Positions 46,182 through 55,133 of a stretch of 64,000 nucleotides of DNA are shown here, piece by piece (within the stretch, counting starts at the first letter, position 1; each line of letters starts with the position of its first letter). Position numbers and translations under genes: made by a program. The notes beneath the pieces are model-generated. The model saw only the letters and a list, made by a program, of their open reading frames with translations. It ran no database searches and was not told the origin of the DNA. The stretch is from Escherichia coli. GTDB lineage: Bacteria > Pseudomonadota > Gammaproteobacteria > Enterobacterales > Enterobacteriaceae. Location: NCBI RefSeq assembly GCF_001677475.2, contig NZ_CP015229.1. One strand, 5' to 3'.

Positions 46182-47285
46182 ATGAGTGACAGCCAGACGC
46201 TGGTGGTAAAACTCGGCACCAGTGTGCTAACAGGCGGATCGCGCCGCCTGAACCGTGCCCATATCGTTGAACTTGTTCGCCAGTGCGCGCAGTTACATGC
46301 CGCCGGGCATCGGATTGTTATTGTGACGTCGGGCGCGATCGCCGCCGGACGTGAGCACCTGGGTTACCCGGAACTGCCAGCGACTATCGCCTCGAAACAA
46401 CTGCTGGCGGCGGTAGGGCAGAGTCGACTGATTCAACTGTGGGAACAGCTGTTTTCGATTTATGGCATTCATGTCGGGCAAATGCTGCTGACCCGTGCTG
46501 ATATGGAAGACCGTGAACGCTTCCTGAACGCCCGCGACACCCTGCGTGCGTTGCTCGATAACAATATCGTTCCGGTAATCAATGAGAACGATGCTGTCGC
46601 TACTGCGGAGATTAAGGTCGGCGATAACGATAACCTTTCTGCGCTGGCGGCGATTCTGGCGGGTGCCGATAAACTGTTGCTGCTGACCGATCAAAAAGGT
46701 TTGTATACCGCTGACCCGCGCAGCAATCCGCAGGCAGAACTGATTAAAGATGTTTACGGCATTGATGACGCACTGCGCGCGATTGCCGGTGACAGCGTTT
46801 CAGGCCTCGGAACTGGCGGCATGAGTACCAAATTGCAGGCCGCAGACGTGGCTTGCCGTGCGGGTATCGACACCATTATTGCCGCGGGCAGCAAACCGGG
46901 CGTTATTGGTGATGTGATGGAAGGCATTTCCGTCGGTACGCTGTTCCATGCCCAGGCCACTCCGCTTGAAAACCGTAAACGCTGGATTTTCGGTGCGCCG
47001 CCTGCGGGTGAAATCACGGTAGATGAAGGGGCAACCGCCGCCATTCTTGAACGCGGCAGCTCCCTGTTGCCGAAAGGCATTAAAAGCGTGACTGGCAATT
47101 TCTCGCGTGGTGAAGTCATCCGCATTTGCAACCTCGAAGGCCGCGATATCGCCCACGGTGTCAGTCGTTACAACAGCGATGCATTACGCCGTATTGCCGG
47201 ACACCACTCGCAAGAAATTGATGCAATACTGGGATATGAATACGGCCCGGTTGCCGTTCACCGTGATGACATGATTACCCGTTAA
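46182..47285 (+). CDS. proB: Glutamate 5-kinase
   Basis: Start set to internal ATG ([19 protein letters not shown]...), 367 aa. Confidence 0.95.
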
Positions 47286-47296
47286 GGAGCAGGCCG

Positions 47297-48550
47297 ATGC
47301 TGGAACAAATGGGCATTGCCGCGAAGCAAGCCTCGTATAAATTAGCGCAACTCTCCAGCCGCGAAAAAAATCGCGTGCTGGAAAAAATCGCCGATGAACT
47401 GGAAGCACAAAGCGAAATCATCCTCAACGCTAACGCCCAGGATGTTGCAGACGCGCGTGCCAATGGCCTTAGCGAAGCGATGCTTGACCGTCTGGCACTG
47501 ACGCCCGCACGGTTGAAAGGCATTGCCGACGATGTGCGCCAGGTGTGCAACCTCGCCGATCCGGTGGGGCAGGTGATTGATGGTGGTGTGCTGGACAGCG
47601 GTCTGCGTCTGGAGCGTCGTCGCGTACCGCTGGGGGTGATTGGCGTGATTTATGAAGCTCGCCCGAACGTGACAGTTGATGTCGCTTCGCTGTGCCTGAA
47701 AACCGGTAACGCAGTGATCCTGCGCGGTGGCAAAGAAACCTGTCGCACTAACGCTGCAACGGTGGCGGTGATTCAGGACGCCCTGAAATCCTGCGATTTA
47801 CCGGCGGGTGCCGTGCAGGCGATTGATAATCCTGACCGTGCGCTGGTCAGTGAAATGCTGCGTATGGATAAATACATCGACATGTTGATCCCGCGCGGCG
47901 GGGCTGGTTTGCATAAACTGTGCCGCGAACAGTCGACGATCCCGGTGATCACTGGTGGTATAGGCGTATGCCATATTTACGTTGATGAAAGTGCAGAGAT
48001 CGCTGAAGCCCTGAAAGTCATCGTCAACGCGAAAACCCAGCGTCCGAGCACATGTAATACGGTTGAAACGTTGCTGGTAAATAAAAACATAGCAGATAGC
48101 TTCCTGCCCGCATTAAGCAAACAAATGGCGGAAAGCGGCGTGACATTACACGCAGATGCAGCTGCGCTGGCGCAGTTGCAGACAGGCCCCGCGAAGGTGG
48201 TGGCGGTTAAAGCCGAAGAGTATGACGATGAGTTTCTGTCATTAGATTTGAACGTCAAAATCGTCAGCGATCTTGACGATGCCATCGCCCATATTCGTGA
48301 ACACGGCACGCAACACTCCGATGCGATCCTGACCCGCGATATGCGCAACGCCCAGCGTTTTGTTAACGAAGTGGATTCGTCCGCTGTTTACGTTAACGCC
48401 TCTACGCGTTTTACCGACGGCGGCCAGTTTGGACTGGGTGCGGAAGTGGCGGTAAGCACACAAAAACTCCACGCGCGTGGCCCAATGGGGCTGGAAGCGC
48501 TGACCACTTACAAGTGGATCGGCATTGGTGATTACACCATTCGTGCGTAA
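47297..48550 (+). CDS. proA: Gamma-glutamyl phosphate reductase
   Basis: 417 aa aldehyde dehydrogenase-type. Confidence 0.95.
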
Positions 48551-48664
48551 ATAAAACCGGGTGATGCAAAACTAGCCATTTGATTCACAAGGCCATTGAC
48601 GCATCGCCCGGTTAGTTTTAACCTTGTCCACCGTGATTCACGTTCGTGAACATGTCCTTTCAGG

Positions 48665-48740
48665 GCCGATATAGCTCAGTTGGTAGAGCAGCGCATTCGT
48701 AATGCGAAGGTCGTAGGTTCGACTCCTATTATCGGCACCA
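48665..48740 (+). tRNA. thrW: tRNA-Thr (anticodon CGU)
   Basis: gccgatatagctcagttggtagagcagcgcattcgtaatgcgaaggtcgtaggttcgactcctattatcggcacca; cloverleaf with CGT anticodon and CCA end. Confidence 0.95.
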
Positions 48741-48754
48741 TTTAAATCAATAAG

Positions 48755-48960
48755 TTACACATCATTAGTACCTTCCTTATTTCTTGACTGGGACAAATTT
48801 GGGACCGATGGGTTCAGAATCGAGTCTATTTGCCGTGCGTGTTCGGTAAGGTGATTAGGTGCGAGGTGAGCATATCGACGAACCATTTCAAGAGTTTCCC
48901 ATCCTCCCATTTCTGTAAGTGCAAGAAGAGAAACACTGGACTGAACCAGCCTGCTTGCCT
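48755..48960 (-). pseudogene. Tyrosine recombinase/integrase remnant (C-terminal fragment only)
   Basis: ORF encodes ...[36 protein letters not shown] (integrase C-terminus with catalytic Tyr) but lacks upstream catalytic domain; abuts thrW 3' end. Confidence 0.7.
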
Positions 48961-49103
48961 TTGCTATCAAAGTACCTTGAGGACCAGATGATTTCTGGCG
49001 ATATTTACAGCGCGTCCGCAATGAGTTTTTCTCCGTGCCGCCAGTGACGTTCCCCGCTTTTTCAGTGCGGCGATAATATCAGCGGGATGCCAGTCCTGTT
49101 GTG

Positions 49104-49574
49104 TCATACAACCACCTCGCTGATAAATTTTACGCCGTCGGCGGTGCGCAGCCAGCGCGGGGCTTTGAGTCCTTCCATGAAATACCAGACCAGTTCACAC
49201 AACAGCCCGGTCAGGGTTTGTTCCGTTTTTGGTTCCGCCGGGCGTTCCAGCAGAAGCTGGAGTAGTGCGAGGCAGTATTCGCACAAGGAATCTGGTTCGG
49301 AAATAAAGTGCTCTGGTGTGGCGGGAAGGGTATCAACGGTCAGGCTTTCAATCAGATGCGGCGGGATGGGGTCGTGCAGCGTGGGGTGCAATAGCGCAAG
49401 AGCCGCGTGAAGCCGTCCGCAGAGCGCTAGCCGTAGCGCGGGATCGTCGGTTTCGATCAGGGTTTCGGCGAAGCGGGCGCAGTAATCGGCAAGGACAGTA
49501 AAATCCGTGGTGGCATTGAAGGGGGCGGACAGCAGATCGAGTAAATCGCAGTCAGGGGTGAGGGTTGTAGCCAT
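49104..49574 (-). CDS. Hypothetical protein (island-encoded, unknown function)
   Basis: 156 aa from ATG 49572-49574 with upstream aggag RBS; no recognisable motif. Confidence 0.5.
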   Translation of the reverse strand: MATTLTPDCDLLDLLSAPFNATTDFTVLADYCARFAETLIETDDPALRLALCGRLHAALALLHPTLHDPIPPHLIESLTVDTLPATPEHFISEPDSLCEYCLALLQLLLERPAEPKTEQTLTGLLCELVWYFMEGLKAPRWLRTADGVKFISEVVV

Positions 49575-49917
49575 AGGGCGTCTCCTGTAACGGTTTATTA
49601 TGTCCGCCACTAGAGAGGCTAATCTCATGGGGGGCGGAACCGGACGGGGTTAGCCTTACCGGCGTTACAGGAAACCGGCGCGTCTTGCGACGCCCCCGCC
49701 CGGCCCGCCATTGAGGTGTAGCCGAACGCACGACACAAAAAAGACGCTGGTGCGTCAAGTGTCGCCTGTAACGGTTTTCAGGAGGCTAATCCCGACGCCT
49801 GATTTTGCAGGCGCGGGAGAAAGATACTGCGATTGGTCATGAGTGGCAAGGGCTACATCCTGTTTACCGACATCTCACGCAAAAATACCCTGATTATTAA
49901 TAGCGAAAATCAGTTTC

Positions 49918-52900
49918 TTATTTTGGCGGTAGCTTTTTGCGGTTCTTTGCCAATTGGAATCCTTCAGGTAACGGTTTGAATTTATCGCCGCCTTTAGGCC
50001 AGCGTTTTGCCCTGCTCTGAAATGCCCTTAACGAGTCGATATCCAGTGTTGCAGCGATCACAAAGTCATTATCGCCGCCCTTCACACGAGCAATATCACG
50101 CATAAAGGGTTCTTTTGCCGGGGAACGTACGCGACTATCGCCGTATTTTCGGTTATTCACTAAAATGGTATAGGCATGAATATCCAGCGCTGCTGATTCA
50201 ATCAACGATGCAAACGTATCCAGATCTTTATTCCAGCTCAATACCATTAATGCATCGAGCGCGCCCTGAAAACGGATCCTCGCTTTACTATTCTGGAGTT
50301 CAGAGCAAATCATAACGCCAAAATTGACGCCGTGATGAATATATACCGGCTTACGTTGTTTAACATTAAGTGTCGAGTCCCAAGACTTACCATAAGTTGA
50401 AAATAATGCCTCATCTTCACCTACGGCGGGTTCCAGCTTGGGTTGCCATATTTTGACACTCGCTGGATAGCCGAGTCTGTTATCTGAAAGGACAAGTACG
50501 GCCTCACTCTTCAGTTGATTATCGCCTAAGTGGCGGTATTCTGTTCCCGCAATTAGACTGATACCCGCCGAACTCAAACGATCAGCAATACTGTTAACCC
50601 AGCGTAACGGGATTGAAAGCTCGGGGAATAAAACATAATCAGGTTTAGGAGATAGTTTCAATGTTGCATTAACCAGTTCAGAAATCCGCTGGTACCTTGA
50701 ACGGGACAAGTTAGATTTATTGCAGGCCATTTTAGCCCAGTCGTCTTCCTCTGTTTTAATGCTGGTTAGCGCAACGACAATTTTATGTTTCCTGTCAGTG
50801 CCAATATGAATGAATTTCTTAGGCCGAGCTTTTTTTGTCGCTTCATCTGAGTCCTGCTCCGATGCTAGTAACGTCGGTTTGATCCATACACCGCGTAATG
50901 CTTGAGTATATTTTGCCCAAACGGTGGACGGTCTCTCATCTGGTTTTTTGTCGGATGTAGAGGGTAATCCAACACATTCGGGGGCCAGTTCTGATATTTC
51001 AGCGGGAGTTAAAGGACGTGTAGGGAAAATGTAAGGTAGGTAACTTTCGTTCTTACGATTTCCTTTAGCCACTTTTTCCAGTCGGGTATTCTTGGTTGAT
51101 TTCAAAAATAGCTTAATAACGTCAATATCAATAAGCGATGAGTCCCTCATTAATTTCAGTATTTTAACTTCTTTTTTACGATCACGCTGATTAACAAGTT
51201 TTTCTGCCGACTGACTCTTTACGATCTGTTTATAAGGTTCCTTTGCTAAATCAGCTCGAGCTACCAATGGCGCTTTTAAATAAAAATCTGCTGAATCAAA
51301 GCGAAGATCCAGTAAATCCTTTAGATTTGTCAGACTTTGTGAAATATGATTAAAAAATGTATCCGCAAGGCACTCTTCTTTCTTTGAACGTTTATCAAGA
51401 AATAATCTGTCAGGACTGTAATATCGTGTCGCTGCATCAACAAATAGCCAGCTTAATGTGCCTTTTATACAGCGCCAAAGATCATTTACTGCTCGAGTTT
51501 TGCAACCATTTATAGTCACTTCCTTACCTGAAGTAATCACCGATGCCAACAGGTTGATGGACTCGTAAGCTTTAAGTACAATTTTTTCCGCGTGCTGCCA
51601 TTCATTCATACTGATAGCAAAGCCAAGCAGCCTTGGCAGATAACTAAAATGTGCAAATAGATTATCAGCCCTAAGAATATGGTTGTAGGCAAACTGATAA
51701 AACTCTTCCCGCTGTTCTTTCCATTCACTTGGAGACAGATCTCGTGCCAGTGTTTCAACGTAGCGTAATTGCAGTGACCAGCCCAAACGACGAATGGTTA
51801 ATCCATCCGCACGGCGCAGAGTATCGGCATTTTCACCTACACTACCGGCAGCGGAAAGGACTTTAGCTGCGGTGGAGTGTTCCAGTTGATCCGGTGAAGG
51901 CATCAAGCGGTGTTCACTAGAAAGCTCGTAGATCTCCTTTTCGATACTGTCGAGCAGATCTATTCCTGCCCTCCCTTGAAGCACGAAAAGTTTTTGCTTA
52001 TCGGATTGTAACTGGATGGTGGTCTTACCCTGGAAATGCTCGCCCTGCTGTATTTGCCATATTTGTTTTTTCTCGTTTTTCAGATAAACGCAATCATTGC
52101 CAAGCCTATCTTGCAGCAATAACATAAATTCGTGATTATTAGTAATTTTACCTGTATCGCGTATTACAAGGAACATATCATCGACATAACGACCGTAGTG
52201 AATTGGCGACAGTTTTTCAATGACTAATTTATCCCAATGGTGTAGCAATATATTGGAAATGATCCGACTGGCTGTTAATCCAATGACCAGACCACCATTA
52301 ATAACAGGTGTTTTGTACGCTATTTTTTTTCCAAATGCCGCTGCGCCGTCAGACCAGTGCTTTAAGAATACAGCTAACTGTGCAGTAAACGCTTTTTCAT
52401 GCTCAGTCAGTTTTATGTTTAGTGTGTTATAGAGATCATCAGAGGTTATAGCCAGTGGATCAATAAAATGATAGTAACTTTTTAAATCCAGTGAGGCGGC
52501 GATAATGTCACGATCTTTTTCCAACTCGTCACGTATAGCTTTTAAGCCATCACCACGCCATTTTTGGTAGGGCTGGAAATAGGGGCTAAAAGAACCCACG
52601 GCACTGATATGGAATGGATTATCCTGCTCATTGCTAAATAATTCATCATTACGAATACGTTTTAGCCGCGCGCCATAACAACAGTTGTCTAAGCTGGCAT
52701 CAAATTTATGCCCGACCATATTAATCCATAGTGCAGAGATAATGTGACTATCAACCGGGAAGTCACCAATAATACGAAACTCTGGTATCAGATCAAAATT
52801 ATTAAATAAATGGTCGGCTGCTCGTTTAGGATTAGAAAAGTGGACGTGTCCATTTTGGAATTCATGTTTTTTCTTTGTGGTTAATTTTTTCGGTAACAAA

Positions 52901-53127
52901 CGAAATTTGCCAATCAACTTCTTATTGCTACTGAATCCATCTTCGCTCTGCAAAATATCTAAGAGTTCTTGCAGGTTTTCAATTAATTCCTGCTCATACT
53001 CGGCAAATTTGATAGCAACAGGAAATGTATTCTCAAAGAAGCTATCGGCTTTGGCTTTCCGGTAAGCGACCAGAAGGTCTTCAATCGTCAGATCATCCCA
53101 GCCAGTGAAAGTTGCCTGATATGTCAT
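49918..53127 (-). CDS. Reverse transcriptase-nitrilase fusion protein (UG/Abi-type defence-associated RT architecture)
   Basis: 1069 aa; RT motifs LDLKSYYHFIDP, GGLVIGLTASRIISNILL, YGRYVDDMF; C-terminal CN-hydrolase signatures FPELSIP and GVMICSELQN; low-GC gene. Confidence 0.75.
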   Translation of the reverse strand: MTYQATFTGWDDLTIEDLLVAYRKAKADSFFENTFPVAIKFAEYEQELIENLQELLDILQSEDGFSSNKKLIGKFRLLPKKLTTKKKHEFQNGHVHFSNPKRAADHLFNNFDLIPEFRIIGDFPVDSHIISALWINMVGHKFDASLDNCCYGARLKRIRNDELFSNEQDNPFHISAVGSFSPYFQPYQKWRGDGLKAIRDELEKDRDIIAASLDLKSYYHFIDPLAITSDDLYNTLNIKLTEHEKAFTAQLAVFLKHWSDGAAAFGKKIAYKTPVINGGLVIGLTASRIISNILLHHWDKLVIEKLSPIHYGRYVDDMFLVIRDTGKITNNHEFMLLLQDRLGNDCVYLKNEKKQIWQIQQGEHFQGKTTIQLQSDKQKLFVLQGRAGIDLLDSIEKEIYELSSEHRLMPSPDQLEHSTAAKVLSAAGSVGENADTLRRADGLTIRRLGWSLQLRYVETLARDLSPSEWKEQREEFYQFAYNHILRADNLFAHFSYLPRLLGFAISMNEWQHAEKIVLKAYESINLLASVITSGKEVTINGCKTRAVNDLWRCIKGTLSWLFVDAATRYYSPDRLFLDKRSKKEECLADTFFNHISQSLTNLKDLLDLRFDSADFYLKAPLVARADLAKEPYKQIVKSQSAEKLVNQRDRKKEVKILKLMRDSSLIDIDVIKLFLKSTKNTRLEKVAKGNRKNESYLPYIFPTRPLTPAEISELAPECVGLPSTSDKKPDERPSTVWAKYTQALRGVWIKPTLLASEQDSDEATKKARPKKFIHIGTDRKHKIVVALTSIKTEEDDWAKMACNKSNLSRSRYQRISELVNATLKLSPKPDYVLFPELSIPLRWVNSIADRLSSAGISLIAGTEYRHLGDNQLKSEAVLVLSDNRLGYPASVKIWQPKLEPAVGEDEALFSTYGKSWDSTLNVKQRKPVYIHHGVNFGVMICSELQNSKARIRFQGALDALMVLSWNKDLDTFASLIESAALDIHAYTILVNNRKYGDSRVRSPAKEPFMRDIARVKGGDNDFVIAATLDIDSLRAFQSRAKRWPKGGDKFKPLPEGFQLAKNRKKLPPK

Positions 53128-53330
53128 GCGTTATCGTCCTTAGATTAAAGTCTGTACAGAATTAGCCAGCCGTTTCATGCCCGAAGGAGGTGCTCTTGAC
53201 ACCAGTAATCCATCAGTGAGGCTGGCAATAATTTTGATTTGTATCCATGTTACACGCTCCCCGCAACCAGTCCGAGCATATATTTGTCACATTTTTCCCG
53301 AAAGTGATTAAGTTTGAATTTTTTGTTTAA

Positions 53331-53349
53331 TGTCGATTTTTAGTCGACA
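53331..53349. promoter_or_regulatory. Inverted repeat tgtcga-N7-tcgaca in divergent promoter region (candidate operator)
   Basis: Palindrome ~75 bp upstream of AbiEi-like gene; AbiEi antitoxins autoregulate via promoter inverted repeats. Confidence 0.35.
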
Positions 53350-53422
53350 AAATGAGGAATAAGTAAATTATTTCTTGCTGTGGCGTATCCCTGAACCTAC
53401 ACTGGTTTAAATATTTGTACTA

Positions 53423-54226
53423 ATGTCTATTCAGGGGCGACATTTGCCAAATTATCTAAACTGGCTGATGCAGAATACGCTACCCGGTCAGGTGCTGCTC
53501 CAGTCATGGCTTACCCGCAACGGCGTAGATCGTAAGCTCTCTTACCTCTATGTCCAGAATGGCTGGCTCAGGCGGATCGCTCACGGCGTATACTGCCGGA
53601 CGGGTCGTGAACCGGACTGGGTGGACGCGGTTTACTGCCTGCAAACACAGTGGGAAAAGCCAGTACGGGTGGCGGGGCTAACCAGCCTTGCGCTTCAGGG
53701 CCATGCGCACTATACCGAACCGGGTAAGCCGCAAATCTGGCTCGCGCTTCCGGCTTACGTCAAACTGCCGGGATGGTTTGCTGCCTTCGAACAATCTGCA
53801 ACATTTATCACGCTGTATACATCGGGCCTTACCGTTGATGTCACGTCATTTACTACGGAACTGAAAATTGGCGACCGGCAGTTAGCAGGCAGTGCCCCGG
53901 AACTGGCCGCGTATGAGATCGCCTGCGGCGTTCCTTCGTTGATATCGTTCGAACATGCCGATGCTCTGTTTCAGGGGATGAATCTTCTCAGCCCGCGTAA
54001 ATTGCAGGCGTTACTCTGCGCCAGTCATTCGGTTAAAACCAACCGGGTGATGCTTTACCTTGCCCGGCGTAATGGACACCCTTATTTTCAGTATATTGAT
54101 CAAAGCGGTATAGAAACAGGTACGGGAAAGCGGCAAATCATACCCGGCGGCTGGCTGGAGCCGGATTATCAAATTACTGTTCCACGCGAATTTAAACCGG
54201 AAGGAGTCGAAGATGGATCTGCGTGA
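53423..54226 (+). CDS. AbiEi-like antitoxin / transcriptional regulator (type IV TA)
   Basis: 267 aa; N-terminal AbiEi-type wHTH-like region (LTRNGVDRKLSYLYVQNGWLRRIAHGVYCRTG); overlaps downstream NTase gene by 14 bp. Confidence 0.6.
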   Translation: MSIQGRHLPNYLNWLMQNTLPGQVLLQSWLTRNGVDRKLSYLYVQNGWLRRIAHGVYCRTGREPDWVDAVYCLQTQWEKPVRVAGLTSLALQGHAHYTEPGKPQIWLALPAYVKLPGWFAAFEQSATFITLYTSGLTVDVTSFTTELKIGDRQLAGSAPELAAYEIACGVPSLISFEHADALFQGMNLLSPRKLQALLCASHSVKTNRVMLYLARRNGHPYFQYIDQSGIETGTGKRQIIPGGWLEPDYQITVPREFKPEGVEDGSA

Positions 54227-55133
54227 TAGCTATACCCGGCAGGTCAAACTGTTGATGGCCGCTCTGCCGCATGTGGCGAAGGAGTCCTGTTTCGCGTTGA
54301 AAGGCGGCACGGCAATCAATTTGTTTGTGCAGGATTTTCCCCGTCTGTCGGTGGATATCGATCTGGCGTATAAGACTTTTGCGGATCGCGATACCGATTT
54401 GACGGCGATCAACGACGCTTTGAAGAGAATTACTGCATCGCTGAACAGTAAACCGGGGATTACCGCGATTCGGCAGGAAAATAAAACGGATGAAAAGCGC
54501 ATCATTGTGAATACGGCTGATGCCCAGATTAAGATCGAGGTTAGTCCGGTCTGGCGTGGGCTGTTGTTGCCTCCGGCAGAAATGTCGGTGTGCGAACGTG
54601 TGGAAATGGAGTATGGCTTCACCACTATGAGTGTCGTTTCGCTGGCGGATCTTTATGGCGGTAAAATCTGCGCAGCGCTTGATCGTCAGCACCCGCGCGA
54701 TCTGTTTGATGTGCTGAATATGCTGGAGAAACCGGGACTGATGCGGGAGATCTTTGACGGTTTTCTTTGTTATCTGGCAGGCCATCCCCGCCCCATTGCC
54801 GAGTTGCTGGCCCCAAACTGGGATACAGAGCGGATCACGACGCTGTATGCCCAGGAATTTTCGGGGATGACTCAGCAGGAAACGTCGCTGGAATCGCTGC
54901 TGTCAGTAACGACTTTGCTGCCGCAGGCGTTGAAGTCACATCTTACGGATCTGGATCGCGAGTTCTTGCTCAGTTTTAAGCAAAACAGCCCTGACTGGTC
55001 GCGGTATCGCTATCCTGAAATTCAGCATCTTCCGGCTATTCGCTGGAAGCAACGCAATCTGGCGGTGCTTAAAGATAAAAATCCGGCGAAGTATGTGGCG
55101 GCGGTGAATAAGCTAGAGAGGGTGCTGGAGTAA
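54213..55133 (+). CDS. AbiEii-like nucleotidyltransferase toxin (DUF1814-type)
   Basis: 306 aa; NTase motif LKGGTAINLF ... RLSVDIDLAY (hGG...DhD). Confidence 0.65.
   Translation: MDLRDSYTRQVKLLMAALPHVAKESCFALKGGTAINLFVQDFPRLSVDIDLAYKTFADRDTDLTAINDALKRITASLNSKPGITAIRQENKTDEKRIIVNTADAQIKIEVSPVWRGLLLPPAEMSVCERVEMEYGFTTMSVVSLADLYGGKICAALDRQHPRDLFDVLNMLEKPGLMREIFDGFLCYLAGHPRPIAELLAPNWDTERITTLYAQEFSGMTQQETSLESLLSVTTLLPQALKSHLTDLDREFLLSFKQNSPDWSRYRYPEIQHLPAIRWKQRNLAVLKDKNPAKYVAAVNKLERVLE

Follow-up and report, generated by a model that had tools for sequence, protein, structure and literature searches.

A C4/IsrK-type antisense-RNA cassette beside a defence reverse transcriptase gene very probably controls ORF156 in the thrW island of Escherichia coli

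We analyzed a stretch of 64,000 nucleotides of Escherichia coli DNA (contig NZ_CP015229.1; referred to as the window), in which a UG5-large reverse transcriptase (RT)-nitrilase gene is followed on the same strand by the GC-rich noncoding stretch 49575-49917, a small gene termed here ORF156 and the remnants of an island whose integration site is the tRNA gene thrW. The C-terminal nitrilase domain of UG5-large is marked by a match of the RTasNitrilase profile to residues 783-1058. Including the RNA elements discussed below, the locus is organized as follows:

49918..53127, minus strand: UG5-large RT-nitrilase gene (PADLOC RT_UG5-nitrilase PDLC03780, E = 0, residues 1-1068)
49852..49917, minus strand: 3' untranslated tail of the RT cassette, 66 nt adjoining the RT stop, AT-rich like the RT gene (GC 0.379), outside the RNA module
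49821..49849, minus strand: candidate promoter from a consensus scan, -35 TTGCCA at 49849..49844, 17-nt spacer, -10 TATCTT at 49826..49821
49737..49814, minus strand: IsrK-like leader RNA, opening with a 5' hairpin, carrying boxes b1 and a1 and closing with an intrinsic terminator
49783..49794, minus strand: box b1, CGGGAUUAGCCU, complementary to C4 b' (inverted repeat I2)
49765..49773, minus strand: box a1, CGUUACAGG, complementary to the C4 a' loop (inverted repeat I5, 9 nt, 100%)
49737..49756, minus strand: intrinsic terminator of the leader from a terminator scan, GACGC-ACCA-GCGUC at 49756..49743 and U6 at 49742..49737
49627..49715, minus strand: C4-type antisense RNA (Rfam RF01695 match; minimum free energy (MFE) fold)
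49663..49671, minus strand: a', CCUGUAACG, within the loop of C4 hairpin 2
49645..49656, minus strand: b', AGGCUAACCCCG, 3' single-stranded C4 segment running into the closing stem
49616..49626, minus strand: box b2, GAGAUUAGCCU, downstream target of b' (direct repeat D2)
49582..49592, minus strand: box a2, CGUUACAGG at 49592..49584, downstream target of a' (inverted repeat I1), together with the overlapping Shine-Dalgarno sequence
49104..49574, minus strand: ORF156, ATG at 49574, downstream of the module
48967..49107, minus strand: truncated Ner/SfsB-like helix-turn-helix (HTH) gene (partial NCBIfam SfsB; PHROG 769), overlapping the ORF156 stop
48755..49021, minus strand: C-terminal integrase fragment (PHROG integrase matches), a remnant of the island recombination genes
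48665..48740, plus strand: tRNA-Thr(CGU), thrW (ARAGORN, Rfam), in the proA-tRNA-Thr context of E. coli 042 and EC958

A sequence-only reading of the noncoding stretch had drawn attention to its direct repeats, a G-run/C-run pair, a palindrome, the lack of a convincing ORF and a GC content higher than that of the RT gene. All of these features are present, with coordinates correct to about 1 nt, and they lie far above chance. The direct repeats form two pairs, the first consisting of GTCTCCTGTAACGGTTT (49580-49596) and GTCGCCTGTAACGGTTT (49761-49777; 17 nt, 94%), the second of identical copies of GAGGCTAATC at 49615-49624 and 49782-49791 (10 nt, 100%). In the 64-kb window the 13-mer CCTGTAACGGTTT occurs exactly twice against 0.03 copies expected from shuffles, and GAGGCTAATC twice against 0.08 expected. 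The G-run and C-run turn out to be the two strands of one long helix (49629-49649 with 49693-49709), and the palindrome gcgtcttgcgacgc lies at 49680-49693. GC content amounts to 0.588 over 49575-49851 as compared to 0.418 in the RT gene. The sole in-frame ORF over the structured core measures 28 codons (49711..49625); two close relatives have 52 and 57 codons at this place, so the frame is not conserved. The 89-nt core folds with an MFE of -50.3 kcal/mol (z = -3.8), a value that none of 200 shuffles attains, and the 250-nt leader with -110.5 kcal/mol (z = -4.3).

A covariance-model search, which the same reading had proposed as a check, places the stretch in two known RNA families. The C4 model (RF01695) matches at 49715..49627 with 73.7 bits against a gathering score of 45 (E 2.1e-13, model positions 1-87 of 87), and the isrK model (RF01394) matches at 49814..49737 with 68 bits against a gathering score of 50 (E 2.6e-13, model positions 1-77 of 77). 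Overlapping the isrK match, the c4-a1b1 model (RF03163) scores 43.8 bits at 49827..49775, below its gathering score of 46.7, which it clears in STEC306 and Dickeya with 47.9-50 bits. The MFE fold of the C4 RNA, a long closing stem around two hairpins, the first of them with a GCAA loop, reproduces the architecture of the Rfam model. The features that had been noticed separately can thus be named: the repeats are the two C4 target sites, the G- and C-runs are the C4 closing stem, and the palindrome is C4 hairpin 1. The general proposal of a structured noncoding RNA or regulatory element is correct. A P4 or P2 cos site, suggested by the G-rich run, was considered as well and dropped, as the Rfam matches explain every feature.

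On the minus strand the module reads as a single ordered unit. The predicted promoter TTGCCA-17-TATCTT, a consensus match, ends 7 nt ahead of the start of the isrK model and would place the transcript start near 49814; its -10 pattern TAnnnT shows little or no variation among 13 related modules. The terminator from the scan falls on the hairpin and U-tail at the 3' end of the isrK model. The a' and b' segments of the C4 RNA have their complements in both copies of the repeats (inverted repeats I1, I2 and I5; direct repeats D1 and D2). Box a1 falls within the copy at 49761-49777, and the second set of boxes, b2/a2, spans 49626..49584. Here box a2 overlaps the ribosome-binding site of ORF156, the Shine-Dalgarno sequence AGGAG (49586..49582) 7 nt before the ATG at 49574, the GGAG of which is invariant in the 13 modules. 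The fallback suggestion of the sequence-only reading, that the stretch could be the leader of ORF 49104-49574, is supported by this arrangement.

The complementarity was compared across 13 modules, drawn from islands of E. coli, from lambdoid phages and from Serratia, Klebsiella, Dickeya and Hafnia. At least 8 different sequences are found for the a1, a' and a2 boxes, with complementarity kept throughout. The a1-a' helix is 96.5% paired, with both sides changed in 7 of its 9 pairs, and the a'-a2 helix 92.9% paired, with both sides changed in 6 of 9; the b1-b' and b'-b2 helices are 91.6% and 72.5% paired, respectively, with 4 pairs changed on both sides in each. Taken together, the upstream helices (a1-a' and b1-b') have 93.7% of cells paired and a covariation score of 0.495 as compared to 0.198 when shuffled, a score that no shuffle out of 500 reaches, while partners slid against each other yield at most 0.114. 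For the downstream helices (a'-a2 and b'-b2) the corresponding values are 81.6% paired and a score of 0.456 against 0.173 (0 of 500 shuffles), with slid partners at 0.093 or below. The three sites covary.

We conclude that the region is very probably a C4/IsrK-type antisense-RNA control cassette of the thrW island backbone, governing ORF156 and originally also the downstream genes for the Ner-like HTH and integrase-family proteins. Elements of this kind are known and ordinary, being represented by P1/P7 immI, P4 CI and Gifsy-1 isrK, and by analogy with these systems RNA processing, net repression and a role for the leader can be proposed. Transcription would start near 49814 from the putative sigma-70 promoter at 49849..49821 on the minus strand, and the first 78 nt would constitute the IsrK-like leader with b1 and a1, ending at the intrinsic terminator. 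Read-through transcripts would contain the 89-nt C4 RNA, probably excised as a stable small RNA, followed by b2 and a2 over the ORF156 Shine-Dalgarno sequence. Pairing of the C4 a' loop and b' tail with b2/a2 would then block translation of ORF156 and would probably also provoke premature termination, while b1/a1, in cis or as the terminated leader in trans, would compete for the same C4 segments and thereby tune the switch.

One close likeness is to the c4 RNA of P1/P7 immI (RF01695, with targets a1/b1, RF03163). Both share the fold, the layout a1b1, c4, a2b2 on one common transcript, the position of a' in a hairpin loop and of b' in a single-stranded tail, and the coverage of the ribosome-binding site of the first downstream gene by a2/b2. 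As among the relatives of the module, the specificity boxes of heteroimmune P1 and P7 differ yet stay complementary. The host element of P1/P7 is, however, a plasmid prophage, whereas the module resides in a small tRNA-integrated island remnant. In P1/P7 the RNA is followed by icd/ant, in the module by a 156-aa protein predicted to be helical and then the Ner-like HTH gene; genes of the icd/ant type are not found here, which concerns the cargo of the operon and not the definition of the RNA family. Unlike P1/P7, the module also carries an IsrK-type leader terminator between a1b1 and C4. With the P4 CI immunity RNA (seqA-cI-seqC) the module shares complementary sites on both sides and the probable excision of a small RNA from the leader of its own target operon, but alpha, epsilon, sid, delta and psu of P4 are absent. 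The main action of P4 CI is to terminate transcription of the replication operon prematurely. The third relative is isrK-orf45-anrP of Gifsy-1 (RF01394; PMC4825925), whose RNA model the module matches over its full length. Common to both are a leader with its own promoter (here a predicted one), a Rho-independent terminator that allows partial read-through, and a middle part of the leader that pairs with a structured segment downstream. Gifsy-1 differs in that the downstream protein of the module is unrelated to AnrP, the "orf45" frame is not conserved, and no AntQ-like gene lies upstream, the upstream neighbor being swappable defence cargo instead.

The Gifsy-1 system also offers the alternative that has to be taken most seriously. 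In its published model the short leader RNA activates, rather than a processed C4 RNA repressing: IsrK binds Hfq and activates the read-through mRNA in trans, its middle pairing with some 30 nt in the "orf45" region (PMC4825925). Transferred to the window, the terminated leader would act in trans to open an inactive fold of the read-through transcript and turn ORF156 on. The full-length isrK match with its terminator, the pairing of the Gifsy-1 IsrK middle with a region that corresponds to the position of C4 here (PMC4825925), and the complementarity and covariation of a1/b1 with a'/b' are all in line with such an activator. It would, however, leave unexplained why a2/b2 covary equally strongly with a'/b' and why a2 lies over the Shine-Dalgarno sequence, and the "orf45" equivalent carries a frame of variable length. 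We regard activation by the leader as unlikely, though well worth keeping in view; it is compatible with C4-mediated repression rather than exclusive of it, and both may operate together.

The gene under the proposed control, ORF156, has 616 homologues, all of them unnamed or mis-extended as "ash family", and no match in Pfam, PHROG, PADLOC or NCBIfam. Its AF2 model (pLDDT 91.6) portrays it as a helical-bundle protein, for which Foldseek searches returned generic four-helix bundles only from the PDB (best E 0.028) and uncharacterised relatives only from AFDB50. The absence of Pfam, PHROG, NCBIfam and PADLOC matches led us to reject homology to icd/ant/antirepressor proteins or P4 orf151. BLASTP detects no similarity to the downstream gene of phage 2H10 (E 0.8), and tblastn against 50,697 phage records found one 1.5-kb fragment only and no P4 match. 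A role as a transmembrane partner of UG5-large was likewise rejected, as ORF156 has no hydrophobic segment (Kyte-Doolittle) and occurs with non-RT cargo. At two UG5 loci (L020 and L026) an ORF of about 150 aa with one transmembrane segment follows the RT; in the window the RT tail runs for just 66 nt before the module promoter, and no transmembrane partner ORF lies downstream. In Serratia, Klebsiella, Dickeya, Hafnia and STEC306 the module is found directly upstream of ORF156 homologues, which accompany it in every relative examined; across islands of Enterobacterales the pairing of ORF156 with the module is conserved.

Farther downstream, the island has decayed in the window, with truncated HTH and integrase genes, no EFASI RNA and loss of the P4-type integrase. 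Intact HTH_35 genes of 68-75 aa follow ORF153 at four related loci (L011, L040, L043 and L045), and RefSeq annotates the integrase fragment as an integrase pseudogene in 042 and EC958. Because of the truncated genes and the missing EFASI RNA, the switch may be a relic without a present role. A term search of the E. coli defence-island paper (PMC10121019) for a named thrW hotspot yielded only the remark that AbiEii is present at three numbered hotspots.

Taken further, this decay raises the alternative that the module is a non-functional fossil of a deleted prophage or island, neither transcribed nor regulating anything, and the IS3 element adjoining the module in strain F2_81 would fit such a history. 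Against it, promoter, terminator, C4 structure, both target sites and the ORF156 frame are all intact, and module and ORF156 have been kept together at thrW in several hundred E. coli genomes (541 records with at least 99% identity, plus the 042 type). We consider a complete loss of function rather improbable.

The sequence-only reading had favored yet another role, that of a noncoding RNA or template belonging to the RT-nitrilase defence system, and here the borders of the RT cassette are informative. Alignments with E. coli EC958 delimit the swappable cassette to about 49852..53219. The junction at 49851/49852 lies just upstream of the -35 box of the module, homology to the hsd-carrying island sets in just 5' of that box, and the 66-nt RT tail is not shared with that island. 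A step in GC content from 0.38 to 0.59 coincides with the junction, leaving the module outside the cassette with a backbone-like GC content. In EC958 a 99.6% identical module stands beside the type I restriction system hsdRMS, which takes the place of the RT. The window is itself recombinant, combining an 042-type RT with an EC958-type module whose a specificity differs (the a' of the 042-type C4 is CCGAUAAGG, the window-type a2 is CGUUACAGG). Beyond these strains, the isrK and C4 pair precedes ORF156 homologues with varied cargo (hsdRMS, RHS, DUF4747, DarTG/hsdMS and a 1620-aa AAA protein), the module lying beside cargo other than the RT of the window in Klebsiella, Dickeya, Hafnia and STEC306, and the pair occurs in the lambdoid phages SfV and 2H10 and in an Stx2a phage, which are without any RT. 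Among 5426 complete E. coli genomes 2195 contain the module in up to 6 copies each, while the RT is present in only 260. The module is thus independent of the RT.

The converse comparison, starting from the RT, leads to the same result. About 21 loci of UG5 homologues from other species, counted where at least 300 nt of 3' flank was available, were inspected, and C4 and isrK are absent from about 20 of them, the sole carrier being a Serratia locus (L011). All-versus-all blastn of UG5 loci revealed no conserved 3' or 5' noncoding element, similarity being confined to close relatives. One homologous locus (L012; RT 80% identical) keeps the RT tail and promoter and diverges from the start of isrK. 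In S. meliloti, RNA-seq of a UG5-large locus revealed no flanking noncoding RNA, deletion of an upstream region left defence unimpaired, and for class 3 UG/Abi RTs no template noncoding RNA is known (bioRxiv 10.64898/2025.12.16.694600; PMC9226505). These data argue against a structured RNA serving as template, primer or scaffold of UG5 RT-nitrilase, as such RNAs do in DRT2, DRT3, DRT9 and the retrons (msr-msd). The likeness to these systems is one of position only, a structured noncoding stretch beside a defence RT; the module is not inherited together with the RT, lies outside its cassette and belongs to another, well-defined RNA family. Two observations speak for an RT-associated RNA: the region directly adjoins the 3' end of the RT gene on the same strand, no strong terminator separating the two, and the order RT-isrK-C4 recurs in Serratia marcescens with an RT of 81% identity. 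Since this adjacency recurs, a functional link to the RT retains a small weight, but we hold it to be very improbable. Of the earlier interpretation, the regulatory RNA and ORF156 leader stand, and the RT-associated noncoding RNA does not.

That the core encodes a small "Ash family" protein, with the repeats being incidental, is scarcely credible: in hundreds of genomes PGAP annotates the C4 core as an "ash family protein", a label that comes from P4 genetics, and Pfam PF10554 is reported for gene calls with an N-terminal extension, but ORF length and frame vary among close relatives, the translations are without an NCBIfam match, the RNA covariance model accounts for the sequence, and the substitutions preserve pairing among three separate sites and not a protein sequence.

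The main value of the finding is a corrective one. A repeat-rich RNA beside a defence RT suggests a template noncoding RNA, yet the RNA beside this RT is a phage-type antisense switch. Recognizing it avoids a mis-assignment, in that cloning of the UG5 RT cassette can be limited to 49852..53219, leaving the module out, and flags the widespread "ash family protein" annotation as sitting on an RNA gene. The cassettes seen in the slot next to the switch comprise the UG5 RT, type I restriction-modification, DarTG, DUF4747, a large AAA protein and RHS. As a tentative extension, the isrK/C4 switch together with ORF153/156, HTH_35, the EFASI RNA and Integrase_1 could possibly form the conserved backbone, for both regulation and mobility, of a widespread group of small tRNA-integrated defence islands in Enterobacterales. 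If so, the slot that immediately precedes the switch promoter would serve as a hotspot for the exchange of defence cassettes, and the covarying a/b specificities would represent "immunity types" that separate related islands or helper phages, as in P4-type satellite immunity. In a weaker variant, read-through from the cargo genes may feed the switch and couple transcription of the defence genes to induction of the island. At thrW and in related islands the switch promoter marks one border of the slot in which defence genes are exchanged, and this border could help to delimit cargo in surveys of defence islands.

The window is an Escherichia coli-like chromosome segment around thrW, which follows proA, an arrangement also seen in E. 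coli 042 and EC958. To the right of this tRNA gene, everything from the reverse transcriptase (RT) gene through an integrase fragment lies on the minus strand, reading right to left.

Genes around the stretch under study
48665-48740, plus strand: tRNA-Thr(CGU), thrW
49021..48755, minus strand: integrase C-terminal fragment
49107..48967, minus strand: Ner/SfsB-like HTH gene, N-terminal fragment of 46 codons
49574..49104, minus strand: ORF156, 156 codons
49917..49575, minus strand: stretch under study, 343 nt, between the RT gene and ORF156
53127..49918, minus strand: UG5-large RT-nitrilase, 1069 aa (PADLOC full-length match, E = 0)
53423-55133, plus strand: AbiEi/AbiEii pair, on the far side of the RT and divergent from it

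A sequence-only reading had suggested that the 343 nt could be either a structured, possibly template, RNA of the RT system or the leader of the small ORF 49104-49574, and every feature that it listed is present. Its direct repeat comprises a 17-nt unit (49580-49596 and 49761-49777, one mismatch) and a 10-nt unit (49615-49624 and 49782-49791, identical), the cores of which occur exactly twice each in the 64 kb versus 0.03 and 0.08 occurrences expected from shuffles. The G-rich run, the C-rich run and the palindrome lie where it had placed them, and the region is locally GC-rich (0.588 in 49575-49851 versus 0.418 in the RT gene). The covariance-model search that it had proposed, an Rfam scan of 47000-55000, returned three minus-strand matches that adjoin or overlap one another, those to C4 and isrK above their gathering scores.

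Features of the RNA module
49849..49821, minus strand: predicted promoter-like site, TTGCCA-17 nt-TATCTT
49827..49775, minus strand: c4-a1b1 (RF03163), 43.8 bits, slightly below gathering (46.7)
49814..49737, minus strand: isrK (RF01394), 68 bits, gathering 50, full model
49794..49783, minus strand: box b1
49773..49765, minus strand: box a1
49756..49743, minus strand: hairpin of the leader intrinsic terminator, followed by U6
49715..49627, minus strand: C4 antisense RNA (RF01695), 73.7 bits, gathering 45, full model
within C4, minus strand: hairpin 1, GCGUC-GCAA-GACGC, from the fold
49671..49663, minus strand: a', CCUGUAAC, loop of C4 hairpin 2
49656..49645, minus strand: b', AGGCUAACCCCG, single-stranded
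49626..49616, minus strand: box b2
49592..49584, minus strand: box a2, overlapping the Shine-Dalgarno sequence AGGAG (49586..49582)

A single known device explains all the features noted from the sequence. The two target sites, b1/a1 and b2/a2, make up the direct repeat; the closing stem of C4 corresponds to the G-run/C-run pair, and its hairpin 1 to the palindrome. Folded independently, C4 adopts the structure of its family, with a long closing stem, two hairpins and a single-stranded b'. The leader, with a predicted start near 49814, is ordered as 5' hairpin, b1, a1 and intrinsic terminator. AGGAG lies 7 nt ahead of the ORF156 ATG at 49574; with box a2 overlapping this site and the module linked with ORF156, the proposal of a leader for the small ORF holds. 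The element can be named precisely: it is an antisense RNA switch of the C4/IsrK type and, being typical of curated RNA families, is of low novelty.

P1/P7 c4 and P4 CI are homologous systems, and the mechanism that we propose is modelled on them. Transcripts from the promoter would mostly stop at the leader terminator, yielding a short IsrK-like RNA, while read-through transcripts would contain C4, which is probably excised. Pairing of a' and b' with b2/a2 would hide the ORF156 ribosome-binding site, shutting off ORF156 and, by polarity, the genes that follow. The b1/a1 copy may compete for C4 in cis, or in trans when present as the short leader. Such competition would be what the study of Gifsy-1 IsrK, the further homologue on which the mechanism is based, calls activation (IsrK is described there as activating; PMC4825925).

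In order to follow the boxes across relatives, we aligned 13 modules: those of the window, E. coli 042, STEC306 and A36, two tandem copies of A19, those of phages SfV, 2H10 and an Stx2a phage, and those of Serratia, Klebsiella, Dickeya and Hafnia. At least 8 different sequences are seen among the a boxes, and a1, a' and a2 stay complementary in each of the 13 modules.

Sequences of a1 / a' / a2 in four modules
Window: CGTTACAGG / CCTGTAACG / CGTTACAGG
E. coli 042: TCTTATCGG / CCGATAAGG / ACTTATCGG
SfV: TGATCAAGG / CCTTGATCA / CGATCAAGG
Serratia: ACATACTGG / CCAGTATGG / ACATACTGG

For a1-a' and b1-b', 93.7% of cells are paired and 11 pairs changed on both sides (covariation score 0.495 versus 0.198 in shuffles, reached by 0/500, and 0.114 in the best slid control); for a'-a2 and b'-b2, 81.6% are paired and 10 pairs changed on both sides (0.456 versus 0.173, 0/500, and 0.093), figures that are not probabilities, since these modules are related to one another and one of them supplied the structure. 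An antisense interaction with switchable specificity would predict such concerted change at three sites in many sequences, and the covarying boxes match the known pattern of the heteroimmune P1 and P7 c4. The tandem isrK+C4 modules of A19 (L010 4507-4711 and 4985-5186) differ in their a and b boxes and lie upstream of genes annotated Icd-like, in an element at a tRNA-Pro gene.

The other proposal, an RNA belonging to the RT, is rejected with high confidence, because six lines of evidence place the module outside the RT system. RT DNA is found in 260 of 5426 complete E. coli genomes and the module in 2195, with up to 6 copies per genome; copies at least 99% identical to that of the window are present in 541 records. 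The thrW island of EC958 carries the integrase fragment, ORF156 and a module 99.6% identical to the window's, with a type I restriction-modification operon (hsdS, hsdM, hsdR) in place of the RT, followed by the same AbiEi. In this alignment, shared sequence ends at 49851/49852, directly 5' of the -35 box, and the other cassette border lies at ~53219. The 66 nt beside the RT stop are RT-like in GC (0.379), while module and ORF156 are alike (0.588 versus 0.577). From borders and GC, the RT cassette therefore spans ~49852..53219 and excludes the module. The private flanks of the RT are short, 66 nt (49852-49917) and ~92 nt (53128-53219).

The window RT is of the 042 type (98.5% identity) and its module of the EC958 type, 042-type modules being ~87-90% identical and of different a specificity. 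By this comparison the window is a recombinant of an 042-type RT and an EC958-type module, a combination found in one other genome only, F2_81, among the 5426. In F2_81, an IS3 element adjoins the module. Phages SfV, 2H10 and an Stx2a phage also have the isrK+C4 pair, in their early operons, and no RT is present there.

Conversely, we collected UG5 RT homologues from 29 loci of other species, ~21 of which have at least 300 nt of 3' flank. Among the latter, C4/isrK occurs in Serratia marcescens only, where the whole island is in common (AbiE, RT, module, ORF153, HTH; ORF153 is the ORF156 homologue); the remaining 3' flanks are unrelated. In a close relative, L012 (80% identical), the RT tail and promoter are retained, and the sequence diverges at the first bases of isrK. 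Some flanks open with a 1-TM ORF of ~150 aa, a known optional partner of UG5-large (PMC9226505); in Shewanella (L020) and Pseudoalteromonas (L026) it has 146-157 aa and starts 11-35 nt past the RT stop. The window RT has no such downstream transmembrane partner ORF. For UG5-large of Sinorhizobium meliloti, RNA-seq revealed no flanking ncRNA and upstream deletion had no effect, and no class 3 UG/Abi RT has a known template ncRNA (bioRxiv 10.64898/2025.12.16.694600).

The module instead travels with ORF156: isrK and C4 stand at the same distance before its homologues while the upstream cargo varies, and in every relative examined the gene follows the C4 module and precedes a Ner-like HTH gene. 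The family is found in Enterobacterales only (616 close hits, 181 clusters at 50% identity) and matches no profile in any library searched. AlphaFold models ORF156 with confidence (pLDDT 91.6) as a helical bundle that has a small hairpin at the C terminus, for which fold searches returned generic four-helix bundles or uncharacterised relatives only. In hundreds of genomes, RefSeq annotates an 'ash family protein' on the C4 core, with ORFs of 28 codons in the window (49625-49711, minus strand), 52 in EC958 (L006 6978-7136) and 57 in E. coli 042 (L002 7016-7189), none of whose three translations has an NCBIfam match. Pfam Phage_ASH (PF10554) matches ORF156 homologues only where the predicted gene has been lengthened upstream to cover the RNA; 'ash family' is probably a protein name given to an RNA gene.

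In intact relatives, ORF153 is followed by an HTH_35 gene, EFASI RNA (RF02957), an Integrase_1-family gene, a P4-type integrase and the tRNA. EFASI RNA scores 103-119 bits (L009 6506-6634, L040 7300-7429, L045 8124-8254); the window lacks it, the HTH and integrase fragments having been fused there by a deletion. The switch, ORF153/156, HTH_35 and EFASI may be the shared backbone of a family of small defence islands, with a cargo slot that opens directly upstream of the promoter of the switch; the slot has a sharp border at 49851/49852 (window 49852-53219 against loci L006, L009, L040, L043 and L045). Cargo differs by strain and genus: the UG5 RT, hsdRMS, RHS in STEC306 (island at a tRNA-Asn gene), AbiE, DUF4747 and a 185-aa gene in Klebsiella, DarT/macrodomain plus hsdMS in Dickeya, and a 1620-aa AAA-type (AAA_16) protein in Hafnia. 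AbiEi/AbiEii, a toxin-antitoxin/abortive-infection pair, is kept beside the slot in E. coli 042, EC958, Serratia and Klebsiella. Judged from these sequences, the slot, bounded by AbiEi (or the island edge) on one side and the module promoter on the other, looks like a hotspot of cassette exchange. The modestly interesting residue of this analysis is the possible shared switch backbone and adjoining cargo slot of small defence islands.
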